From positions 79,324,286 to 79,388,285 of the forward strand of contig NC_057721.1 in the NCBI RefSeq assembly GCF_004010195.1: DNA of 64,000 nucleotides, read 5' to 3'. The position numbers and the translations under genes were made by a program. Positions 41,590 to 59,226 of this stretch are shown piece by piece (position 1 is the stretch's first letter; the number at the start of each line of letters is the position of its first letter). Below the pieces are notes generated by a model. The model was given only the letters and a program-made list of their open reading frames with translations, had not been told where the DNA came from and ran no database searches. The DNA is from Chiloscyllium plagiosum. Its lineage: Eukaryota.

Positions 41590-41719
41590 ATGAGGGCACT
41601 CCTACTTCTCAGTCTCCTGCTTATGTCAATAGGTGCCAAGGTCTATGAGAAATGCGAATTTGCTCGGATTTTGAAGGATAAAGGATTAGATGGATTTCAC
41701 AGGCACAGATTGGCGGACT
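41590..41719 (+). CDS. lysozyme-like gene C exon 1 (absent from the ORF track)
   Basis: Signal peptide ...[16 protein letters not shown] motif; donor GTGAGT at 41720. Confidence 0.92.
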
Positions 41720-56700: not shown

Positions 56701-59226
56701 TCTCTTTCCGTTGACACAGTGGGGCAAGAAAAACTTGCACTTTTTAATGATGTGAACTCTATTTGAGTCTATCAATTGAGTTGTTTGCTGGGATTGTGTG
56801 GCCTACCCTAAATACCCCCTAACTTCAGCTTGGCTCTCTCTAATGGCACAATGGTTTTGTTGTAAAAGAGCAACTAAAAACTAAAGCTAAATTTATTCAT
56901 TTCTTATTGTAGGTTTGCTGGATGATGATATCACTGATGATATTCAATGTGTAAAGTCTGTGGTTGTTACTCAGCTTGGAATGGATATCTGGTATGTTTT
57001 GAGCCCTGCTTTATTATTTAGTTTCTCGCTGCCTCTGTGAACCATGATGACAATTTAATATGACAGAAACCAGACTTAAAGGGAATGCAAGGTGAAGAGC
57101 TAGGGTTCACAGTACAATACATCATCATGGTATGAAGAAAGTCGATTGAATCAGAGAAATGGTGAAATTGAAAGTCAGGGTTGCCTGTTTAGAAGGTGGG
57201 AACTGGACAAGGTGATGGGGATCTGAGACTTTTAGGATATTTAGGATATTTTTGTGGTAGAACATGCCTGAGCTATGAAGGATGTCATTGCCTACCATGA
57301 GTTCTCTCAGGACACCCATGGAACTTGCAGCCAATGTCGTCAATGTTGGTATTCGGCCAACTTTCTGCAGCTGGTGACACCTCAGGCTTTTCTCATGGTC
57401 ATACCAGAGGGTAGAGATTTGAACAGCCGTTCCTGAGAACATGCACCAGCAAGTTCAATGCTTGCCTCACTTTCTTAAAAAGGTAGAAGTTTGTTTTCTC
57501 AAAAGGGAGATCCACAGTGCAGCCATTTCTGAGGCAGCGTGCCCTTATTTCAATTGGGTTGAATGACTTGATGGGATTGGCTCAGCTTTTTGCTGTGAAT
57601 ATTGTCAGCACATACATAAAGATTATTTGTGATTTTACCCTGCCATCAGATTCACCTTTTAGGTCACTCTGTGGTTAGCACTACTGCCTCACTGCGCCAG
57701 GGACCCAGGTTCGATTCTGGCCTTGGGTAACTGTCTGTGTGGAGTTTGCACATTCTCCCAGTGGCTGTGTGGGTTTCCTCCCATAGTCCAAAGATGCGTA
57801 ATTTAGGTGGATTAGAGCTATAGAGATATACAGAAGGGAAACAGACACTTTGGTCCAACTCATCTATGACAACCAGAAACCCTAAATCAGTCAAGTCCCA
57901 TTTGCCAGCATTTGGCCCATGTCCCTCCAAACCCTTCCTATTCATATACCCATCCAGATGCCTTTTAAATGTTGTAGTTGTATCAGACTCCATCACTTCC
58001 TCTGGCAGTACTTTCCAGACATGCACCACCTTCTGTGTGAAAAAGTTACCCCATAGGTCCCTCTTTCCCCTCTCACCGGAAACCTACACCCTCTAGTTTT
58101 GGGCTCCCCTACCCCAAGGAAAAGCCCTTGTCCATTTACTGTATCTCTGCCACTCTACAAGGTCACTCCTCAGTCTAAATTGCCCCGTAGTTTGTAGAGA
58201 TCTGTGGGGCAAGTGACCAGCTATGGTAAATGTGGGATTATAGAGATGAGATGGTGCTGGGTGGGGTGCTCTTCAGAGAGTCAGTGTAGACTGAATGGGC
58301 TGAAGGGCCTCTTTCTGCACTGTAGGGACACTATGAATCCTGGTGGGCCTCAGTGGTGTAAACATAACAGAGATTTGAAGTGACAGCCCCAGTAGAACCA
58401 GGATTCTGCACCATTTGGCAGGGAGGTAAAAAAACAATTGACTGGGGAAGGTTGAATCTGGACTTCACTTTAATACCATGCTGTTTACAAACCATAAGGT
58501 ATAGGAGTAAAAATTAGGTCATTTGGCCCATTGAGTCTAATCTGACATTCAGTCATGACTGATAAGTTTCACAACCCAATTCTCACATATGTTTCCTTGT
58601 AACCTTTGATCCCAGTTGATACTCAAGAACCTATCTATCTCTGTTTTAAATATACTCAATGACCTGGCCTCCACCGCCTTCTGTGGCAGTGAATTCCACA
58701 GATTCACCACTCTCTGGCTGAAGAAGATTCTCCTCATCTCCGTTCTAAAGGGTCTTCCCTTTACTCTAAGGCTGTGGCCTCCAGTCTTAGGGGGTTTCTC
58801 CTGCTAATGGAAATATCTTCCCAAACCCCATTCCATCCAGGCCTTTCAGCACTCTGTAAGTTTCAATTATATCCCCTCTCAGCCTTCTAAACTCTATCAA
58901 GTATAGACCCAGAGTCCTCAAACATTCCTCATATGTTCAGCCTTCATTCTCAGGAGTCTCCTTTGGACTCGCTCCAGGACCAGTGCATCTTTCCTGAGAT
59001 ATGGGGCCCACAATTACTCACAATATTCTAAATGTGAGACCCAAAGGGCTGAATGACCTATTTCTGGACTAGAATGGCATATAGCTGAGTGGAATGAATG
59101 GGACTCTTCTTGTTCAAAGTTCCTGCTTTTTCCAGCTTTAACATTGTTTTCCATTGCAGGTCTGGCTGGAAGAAGAAGTGCATGGGGCAAGATCTCAGTC
59201 ATCTTCTGGATAGTTGCAGAATGTGA
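41590..59226 (+). CDS. calcium-binding lysozyme/alpha-lactalbumin-like gene C, join(41590..41719,44299..44472,56913..56991,59160..59226), 149 aa
   Basis: Spliced ORF of 450 nt: [149 protein letters not shown]. Has 8 Cys, canonical splice sites and phases, and no stops or frameshifts. Confidence 0.93.
42339..42373 (+). ncRNA. minimal hammerhead ribozyme motif (PLE family B variant), sense in gene C intron 1
   Basis: CAC-CTGACGA-A-GGAGC agt GCTCC-GAAA-GT-TT-GTG. Confidence 0.55.
44299..44472 (+). CDS. lysozyme-like gene C exon 2
   Basis: Acceptor aattttag; [13 protein letters not shown]...[15 protein letters not shown]...C...C; donor GTAAGT at 44473. Confidence 0.95.
45053..45417. mobile_element. 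Tc1/mariner-pogo type MITE
   Basis: About 23-bp terminal inverted repeats C(C/T)GTA(T/C)ATA(T/C)TC(A/G)AGTAATAGTC, with a TA duplication on both sides. Confidence 0.75.
45685..47210 (+). mobile_element. CR1-like LINE, decayed RT half
   Basis: YMDF.KAFDKV, QGS.LGP, KFVADT and C-terminal motifs. Confidence 0.85.
47210..51015 (+). mobile_element. near-full-length decayed CR1-like LINE (ORF1 esterase + ORF2 APE/RT)
   Basis: ORF1 SGNH esterase motifs (VLGDS...[10 protein letters not shown]...VHIGTN); APE endonuclease ([16 protein letters not shown]); RT ([16 protein letters not shown]); (tgactc)n-like tail. Frameshifts and an internal RT deletion at about 50101. Confidence 0.9.
52430..55857 (-). 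mobile_element. decayed Gmr1-like Ty3/Gypsy element (gag-PR-IN, RT missing) in gene C intron 2
   Basis: On the - strand: LTR 55857-55213; PBS TGGGGGCTC (tRNA-Pro type) at 55209-55201; gag with CFHC knuckle; protease end (VLGND); integrase Zn finger (CQTCHACQ) and core (IDCV.PLP...[16 protein letters not shown]...SDQGSNF). Confidence 0.85.
55870..56290 (-). mobile_element. CR1-like LINE fragment
   Basis: Reverse complement contains the LEYC.QFW.P.Y..D..ALE RT C-terminal motif. Confidence 0.65.
56913..56991 (+). CDS. lysozyme-like gene C exon 3 (Ca2+-binding loop)
   Basis: Acceptor ttcttattgtag; [27 protein letters not shown]; 79 nt; donor GTATGT. Confidence 0.93.
57663..58335 (+). mobile_element. 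HE1-like SINE interrupted by an antisense CR1 3' end (about 57820-58175)
   Basis: SINE head and core, then a reversed LINE tail, then the SINE resumes. Confidence 0.75.
59160..59226 (+). CDS. lysozyme-like gene C exon 4
   Basis: Acceptor ttttccattgcag; (W)[24 protein letters not shown]; 67 nt, as in gene B. Confidence 0.92.

Follow-up and report, generated by a model that had tools for sequence, protein, structure and literature searches.

Gene B of the bamboo shark Chiloscyllium plagiosum represents an apparently undescribed, shark-restricted clade of c-type lysozymes lacking the catalytic Asp52

We analysed a stretch of 64,000 nucleotides from the genome of the bamboo shark Chiloscyllium plagiosum (contig NC_057721.1 of the RefSeq assembly GCF_004010195.1, forward-strand positions 79,324,286 to 79,388,285), which is called the window below and whose own numbering is used throughout. 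Three tandem lysozyme paralogues, designated genes A, B, and C, are located in it. Gene B (41590-59226, + strand) has asparagine instead of aspartate at the catalytic position 52 and belongs to a shark-only clade devoid of Asp52, which is real and apparently undescribed so far. The reading that we favour, and consider moderately probable, is that the gene B protein is a secreted, probably Ca2+-stabilised, weakly lytic or non-lytic binder, which converged on the pseudo-enzymes of the alpha-lactalbumin (LALBA)/SPACA3 type. A first-pass annotation of this DNA had offered two origins for gene B, a relic of the lineage that gave rise to alpha-lactalbumin or a convergent pseudo-enzyme, and the second of them is favoured by the data presented here.

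Gene B consists of four coding exons. Exon 1 (41590-41719, +; GT donor at 41720) encodes helix A and a predicted signal peptide of about 16 amino acids, which by homology ends at 41637. Exon 2 (44299-44472, +) carries Glu35, the extended beta-hairpin with Tyr46 and Asn52, the conserved Gln57, Asn59, and Trp63, and a Glu at position 62. The Ca2+ loop, helix C, the remodelled residues Thr101-Gln102-Leu103, and Ile107 are encoded by exon 3 (56913-56991, +), while exon 4 (59160-59226, +) includes the stop codon; a candidate polyadenylation signal, AATAAA, lies at 59525-59530 (+). All three introns (2579, 12440, and 2168 nucleotides) are of the GT-AG type, and the frame is open across 17.6 kb; the gene is intact, and six-frame translation located the motifs reported by the first-pass annotation where it had placed them. 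The precursor has 149 residues and the mature chain 133, including eight cysteines; the four exons, three introns, and eight cysteines are as in the family gene structure of c-type lysozymes given in PMC7565966. Exon 2 alone matches solved lysozymes with an E value of 5e-12, its Asn facing Asp53 of human lysozyme, and the RefSeq model of gene B scores E 1e-34 against PF00062, which excludes a chance likeness to lysozyme. The PF00062 scores are 119.8 bits for the model P0005 (XP_072440432.1) and 135.6 bits for the Cetorhinus orthologue P0004, the curated cut-off being 27. A pyrimidine tract with AG at about 41500-41512 (+), some 80 nucleotides 5' of the ATG, suggests an upstream untranslated exon, and a 9-residue N-terminal extension is present in three related RefSeq models.

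The gene B protein is identical to the RefSeq "lysozyme C-2-like" proteins of Chiloscyllium (XP_043556137.1/XP_072440432.1) except for 13 extra RefSeq residues placed before the Ca2+ loop, which arise from a donor located 39 nucleotides downstream. The two candidate donors of intron 2 (44473-44512, +) are the homologous GTAAGT at 44473, fitting the consensus at 6/9 positions, and the weaker GTACCT at 44512, fitting it at 5/9. The 13-residue insert has a predicted local distance difference test score (pLDDT) of about 61 in a model whose remaining chain is confident, and it is absent from the RefSeq models of Cetorhinus and Heptranchias. For these reasons the insertion is disfavoured as the main form, and the donor at 44473 is taken as producing the main splice form of gene B. 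Two Chiloscyllium punctatum models, P0001 (XP_072440429.1) and P0005, differ only by Tyr53->Asn, representing either a recent duplicate or an uncollapsed haplotype; this replacement creates an STNNG motif, which is present also in SPACA3.

Homologues were collected by three word-limited searches, supplemented by an exhaustive one over cluster representatives. The alignment comprised 86 rows (two window proteins plus 84 named proteins picked from about 400), from which unnamed, redundant, and most partial hits and two near-identical Chiloscyllium models were excluded, and in five rows mis-modelled tails were trimmed. The set does not contain eutherian LALBA, LYZL4, LYZL6, hen, pigeon, horse, coelacanth, or lungfish sequences, and LALBA is represented by four marsupial rows. 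In the 86-row tree, gene B sits in a 14-row, shark-only clade with support of 100/100, its relatives coming from Hemiscyllium, Rhincodon, Mustelus, Scyliorhinus, Cetorhinus, Carcharodon, and Heptranchias. These genera span four shark orders and both sides of the deepest shark split. None of the nine batoid and two chimaera rows joins the clade, an absence that the searches do not prove, and a search of a 50%-identity library added more shark paralogues with no non-shark clade member among the 10 hits looked up.

Nine rows of the clade are slow-evolving (four full-length and five partial), and all of them, from eight genera, have Asn52. In the five faster rows, which include the gene C protein, position 52 is occupied by Asn, Lys, Lys, Leu, and Arg. 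Asp52 is thus found in 0/14 clade rows versus 22/25 other chondrichthyan rows. Conservation of Asn52 in other sharks was among the checks proposed by the first-pass annotation, and its outcome rules out a sequence error or private allele, since Asn occurs in eight shark genera. The codons in gene B are GAA for the general acid Glu35 (44319-44321, +) and, as had been reported, AAC for Asn52 (44382-44384, +). Glu35 is retained in 13/14 clade rows; in one of the two copies of Heptranchias perlo (P0008), both catalytic acids are lost (Ala35, Asn52). On the tree, Asn52 needs at least six changes.

Gene B shares 63-94% of its residues with each of the eight remaining slow rows, and the galeomorph orthologues show 79-94% identity and short branches. 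The whale-shark model, which reads through intron 2, offers a rough control for neutral change: 7/85 coding residues differ as against 8/25 intron codons (p 0.005). Beside the slow rows stand fast sister paralogues of Cetorhinus, Scyliorhinus, and Mustelus (P0013, P0024, P0034, and P0046), in which 8-9 residues of the beta-hairpin are deleted and position 52 is variously N, L, R, or K, with Glu35 and the complete Asp-Asp-Asp (D-D-D) Ca2+ loop retained. Further independent losses of Asp52 (to Val and Asn) were seen outside the gene B clade, in P0215/P0396 of Heptranchias and P0207 of Rhincodon.

The substrate cleft is remodelled beyond position 52. In hen lysozyme numbering, gene B has D52N, N46Y, W62E, D101T, and A107I, while Q57, N59, W63, and W108 are kept and are invariant in the slow rows. 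The register of W62E, D101T, and A107I was fixed by aligning the Cetorhinus orthologue P0004 to canine milk and human lysozymes; it upholds these replacements as listed by the first-pass annotation, which had however missed Asn46->Tyr (TAC, 44352-44354, +). Tyr46 is clade-fixed, being found in 9/9 slow rows, whereas 47/50 lysozymes with Glu35 and Asp52 have Asn there. We defined as rare a residue found in less than 15% of these 50 lysozymes and considered the columns invariant in the nine slow rows. Rare residues occupy columns 46, 52, 75, 101, 102, 103, and 107, all seven being on the 16-residue list of (N-acetylglucosamine)3 contacts of hen lysozyme (1LZB) given in Table 2 of PMC5104373, i.e., 7/12 invariant sugar-contact columns versus 0/38 others (p 8e-6). 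Position 52 enters this test by construction and Leu75 is the hen residue; without these two columns and with 101-103 counted as one, the p value is 0.005. In the control clade of gene A, rare residues occur at 0/8 contact and 7/60 other columns. This concentration of fixed replacements at contact sites suggests a new ligand or a retooled cleft rather than decay.

The mature chain of gene B has 16 K+R and 17 D+E, confirming the nearly neutral charge noted before, and the four full-length slow rows range from -1 to -5 in net charge, as compared to +5 to +13 for the clade of gene A. The lytic activity of hen lysozyme falls to about 5% in the D52N mutant and is absent in E35Q (PMC11576321 and PMC10880428, citing Malcolm 1989). 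Since in gene B further cleft changes and the lost positive charge are added to D52N, strong muramidase activity is unlikely, and judging from the sequence, the protein probably has little or none; together with the conservation of Asn52 across sharks, this agrees with the weakly lytic or non-lytic GH22 protein proposed initially. The fold appears unaffected: the AlphaFold2 model of the Cetorhinus orthologue has a pLDDT of 91.8 and superimposes on canine milk and hen lysozymes with Z 24 and a root-mean-square deviation (rmsd) of 1.0 Å over 128-129 residues. The two N-glycosylation sequons reported for gene B, NTT and NCS, are indeed present, but they are not conserved, the nine slow rows (five of them partial) having from 0 to 2 each, and glycosylation as a clade trait is rejected.

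The Ca2+ elbow of gene B (56921-56941, +) includes all three side-chain ligands, Asp82, Asp87, and Asp88 in lactalbumin numbering, as had been read from the sequence in the first pass. These ligands are defined for alpha-lactalbumin, where Ca2+ stabilises the fold, in PMC7565966, and very probably the gene B protein also binds one Ca2+ in the elbow with the same effect. The full D-D-D loop is found in 11/12 clade rows covering this region, as compared to 3/25 other chondrichthyan rows (stingray lysozymes among the carriers) and 13/42 other vertebrate rows, four of which are LALBA (9/38 without them). Sturgeon and paddlefish enzymes combine the full loop with both catalytic acids. The Asp87/Asp88 pair is present in 58/74 vertebrate and 3/4 insect rows, and the N-D-D form of the loop in 21/25 other chondrichthyan and 3/4 insect rows; the full loop is one substitution away from this common form and needs at least six changes on the tree. 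Being so widespread in ordinary lysozymes, the Ca2+ loop is not a marker of lactalbumin ancestry. Two other Ca2+-loop lysozymes combine Glu35 with Asn52, the echidna "lysozyme C I-like" protein (P0023) and a Varanus protein (P0347); the echidna protein, in which His-Arg precedes Glu35, may be relevant to the origins of monotreme lactalbumin.

The phylogenetic placement and the beta-hairpin appear to indicate an origin independent of mammalian alpha-lactalbumin, the likeness to it and to SPACA3 being convergent. Three trees were computed with 1000 bootstraps each: with all rows, without insects, and without insects, long rows, and trait columns. A group of the clade with LALBA, with or without echidna and the calcium-binding lysozymes (Lysc1), was found in 0/1000 bootstraps in all three trees; the clade was never grouped with Lysc1 (0/1000) or with SPACA3 (0/1000), and its union with SPACA3 is rejected by the approximately unbiased (AU) test (p 0.024). 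The smallest group in which the clade was united with other rows contained only chondrichthyans in 598, 1000, and 1000 of 1000 bootstraps, and the chondrichthyan lysozymes formed one group in 946, 879, and 118. The cartilaginous-fish lysozymes are marked by a beta-hairpin that is 3-4 residues longer: the distance from Glu35 to position 52 is 21 in 9/9 slow rows and 21-22 in 25/25 other chondrichthyan rows, including chimaera, while it is 16 in LALBA, 17-18 in Lysc1/echidna, and 16-18 in every one of the 42 vertebrate rows outside the chondrichthyans. Among 168 other search hits in which the pattern could be read, only one unnamed protein has the 21-residue spacing. The clusters retrieved from the ESM Atlas were all generic PF00062 ones, the value of 0.97 being shared by milk lysozyme, insect lysozyme, and lactalbumin.

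Comparison with the known systems specifies which features are shared. The calcium-binding lysozymes (Lysc1; canine, equine, and bat milk) resemble gene B by about 50% identity, three Asp elbow ligands, and Glu35, and canine milk lysozyme (2cwi) fits the Cetorhinus model with Z 24.3 and rmsd 1.0 Å over 128 residues; however, these proteins, which are bacteriolytic according to PMC3141428, keep Asp52, W62, D101, and A107, all changed in gene B, and the shark clade has the longer hairpin. With LALBA, gene B shares the Ca2+ loop, the loss of Asp52, a larger residue at A107/Y103, and a neutral-to-acidic charge, although at 36% its identity to LALBA ranks with the lowest values of the set, position 52 is Asn rather than Glu, and the hairpin is 5 residues longer. 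The galactosyltransferase patch Phe31/His32/Gln117/Trp118, as defined in PMC7565966, is D, I, H, L in gene B as opposed to F, H, Q, W in 4/4 LALBA rows, and at LALBA positions 103 and 107 gene B has Ile (for Tyr103) and Trp (for His107) rather than an aromatic residue and His. The first-pass annotation also counted QINNK as a lactalbumin-like trait, which we reject: three marsupial LALBAs have QISNNGW, and the bat milk lysozyme has QINNKWW. The SPACA3/SLLP1, LYZL4, and SPACA5 proteins share Asn52, loss of the aromatic residue at 62, and an acidic chain, and the SPACA3-like rows of alligator and echidna pair Glu35 with Asn52, the alligator row having also Ile107; SLLP1 is described as non-lytic in PMC5104373, and the full D-D-D loop was found in 0/6 SPACA3 rows. 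The conventional chondrichthyan lysozymes (the gene A clade and Callorhinchus) share with gene B the exon structure, tandem cluster, and 21-residue spacing, while mostly keeping Asp52 (22/25), Asn46, Ala107, and the N-D-D loop (21/25). An active enzyme of the nurse shark is the only shark lysozyme mentioned in the available text of the review PMC6795676, and PMC11372145 gave nothing pertinent. The automatic RefSeq name "lysozyme C-2-like", given to XP_043556137.1/XP_072440432.1, overlooks the catalytic loss.

We suggest the following scenario. Gene B would be the bamboo-shark member of an old, shark-restricted subfamily, which was born by tandem duplication within the chondrichthyan c-type cluster, while conventional paralogues such as gene A would keep the muramidase job. 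As judged from the sequence and the model, the protein would retain the signal peptide, four disulfides, and the fold, and the identity of the ligands suggests that one Ca2+ bound in the elbow would stabilise it. The catalytic nucleophile and its neighbour (D52N, N46Y) would be lost together with the stacking and hydrogen-bonding residues of subsites A-C (W62, D101-N103, A107I) and the positive charge, and the core Q57/N59/W63/W108 and mostly E35 would be kept by the clade. Most probably, the reshaped cleft would hold a short N-acetylglucosamine-type glycan or glycoprotein that is left uncut, or cut very slowly, which would make the protein a secreted lectin-like binder. By analogy with SPACA3 and LYZL4, it could plausibly act in reproduction; the antibacterial substances of elasmobranch egg jelly are referred to as unidentified in PMC11496042. 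Catalytically inactive lysozymes can stay antibacterial according to PMC4914998, a role that the neutral-to-acidic chain fits less well.

Several points weigh against this scenario. The tree backbone is poorly resolved, being based on 112-130 columns, which leaves an origin as a lactalbumin relic unlikely rather than excluded. The AU test gives p 0.247 for the clade joined to LALBA with all rows and columns, falling to 0.024 in the set trimmed of insects, long rows, and trait columns, and p 0.067 for the clade joined to Lysc1 and echidna (0.090 with LALBA added). The intron control includes only 25 codons of one species pair, the contact test relies on one paper's list, our own hen numbering, and adjacent non-independent sites, and in the loop of Carcharodon Asp87 is replaced by Asn. 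Against human lysozyme, HMMER gapped the hairpin elsewhere, hence we base the register of N46Y on shark paralogues of equal length, which match without a gap. The non-rejected AU topologies are compatible with a survivor of the ancient Ca2+-binding lysozyme lineage ancestral to Lysc1 and alpha-lactalbumin, as are the prevalence of the full loop in the clade, the best PDB sequence match (canine milk lysozyme, ahead by 1 bit), and the combination of retained Glu35 with lost Asp52, reported for monotreme lactalbumin and proposed as an intermediate state toward lactalbumin in PMC10266760. Still, we consider such a relic, suggested by the first-pass annotation, very improbable given the bootstraps, the trimmed-set AU value, the hairpin spacing, the low identity to LALBA without its galactosyltransferase patch, and the ease with which the full loop arises from N-D-D.

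The retention of Glu35 in nearly all clade rows and the residual activity of hen D52N, as opposed to E35Q, also count against a purely binding protein and make slow catalysis possible. The protein could then be a slow or re-specialised glycosidase, in which Glu35 is still the acid, the part of Asp52 is taken over by water or by groups of the substrate itself, and the specificity of the rebuilt cleft has shifted, with modified peptidoglycan, chitin, or a host glycan as candidate substrates. The invariance of Q57/N59/W63/W108 in slow rows and the D52S hen lysozyme structure 1lsy, titled as holding an oligosaccharide product, fit this possibility, yet we find it rather doubtful: Glu35 is kept too in monotreme lactalbumin and in LYZL4, a protein that reportedly lacks lytic activity in rodents, it is replaced by Ala in one Heptranchias copy, none of N46, W62, D101, and A107 is preserved, and the chain lacks a basic charge. 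It is improbable, in our opinion, that sharks independently repeated the lysozyme-to-lactalbumin type of transition, a dead Ca2+-stabilised lysozyme being recruited in the reproductive tract (in the oviducal gland, egg jelly, uterine fluid, or sperm) as a subunit that regulates or recognises a host glycan or glyco-enzyme; if true, living intermediates of this path would be seen in the form retaining only Glu35 and in the Heptranchias form with both acids lost. Gene B could also be a barely expressed duplicate decaying in at least some lineages, whose substitutions reflect relaxed selection. In line with this, 7/10 RefSeq models of the slow rows are mis-spliced or truncated (alternative donor, intron-2 read-through, or wrong 3' end), a further point against a functional binder, which may reflect narrow expression in a seldom-sequenced tissue or loss in some lineages; the fast sister subclade with Leu/Arg/Lys at 52 and hairpin deletions and the second C. 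punctatum model with Y53N point in the same direction. Decay seems quite improbable to us, as the frame and canonical splice sites are intact over the whole gene, the galeomorph orthologues are similar, the coding sequence is more conserved than the adjacent intron, and the new residues are fixed rather than scattered.

The remainder of the window holds only lysozyme paralogues, with no non-lysozyme genes found in it. Gene A (8384-25134, +; exons 8384-8513, 15099-15278, 18311-18386, and 25068-25134) has intact Glu35/Asp52, a net charge of +9, and an N-D-D loop, its mature chain being identical (134/134) to the C. plagiosum RefSeq model P0308; by sequence it is likely the conventional enzyme of the cluster. 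It has Arg at position 62 and a one-residue deletion near 101, and its orthologues occur in sharks, skates, and rays. Only exon 1 of gene C (2825-2954, - strand) lies inside the window, the remainder being beyond it; its translation is the N-terminus of P0170 (XP_043556135.1), a long-branch, fast-evolving member of the Asp52-less clade with Lys52 and Thr107. The presumed first intron of gene C includes a 122-base N gap (1757-1878). Two open frames in intron 3 of gene A, 20437-21018 (+; 193 codons) and 23143-23682 (-; 179 codons), gave no Pfam match. Strong G and A skew with broken frames was observed at 46000-52000, in intron 2 of gene B, and at 61700-62000; we take these frames to resemble reverse-transcriptase fragments of long interspersed nuclear elements. 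In Cetorhinus, Scyliorhinus, Heptranchias, and Mustelus, the paralogues of one species are on equally long contigs, which is consistent with a tandem cluster.

No description of the shark Asp52-less clade was found among the papers listed by literature searches; the many sequences in the supplements of PMC3141428 and PMC5104373 could bear on its novelty. Li et al. (2021) reportedly described lalba-like genes in teleosts in their work on fish lysozymes, which may include shark sequences. How an enzyme can become a regulator is illustrated in textbooks by the transition from lysozyme to alpha-lactalbumin. The order of its steps is argued from few examples in PMC3141428 and PMC10266760, and the former presents non-catalytic GH22 paralogues as an established kind. 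Because LALBA, SPACA3, and LYZL4 are already known as such, the surprise is moderate until the ligand or tissue of gene B is found. For practical purposes, the RefSeq names and most gene models of the clade are misleading. For the evolution of the family, the shark clade would offer an independent, long-lived replicate, in which Asp52 was lost first and Glu35 later in one copy, the Ca2+ site was completed, and cleft residues were newly fixed, with an active paralogue in the same cluster as a control.

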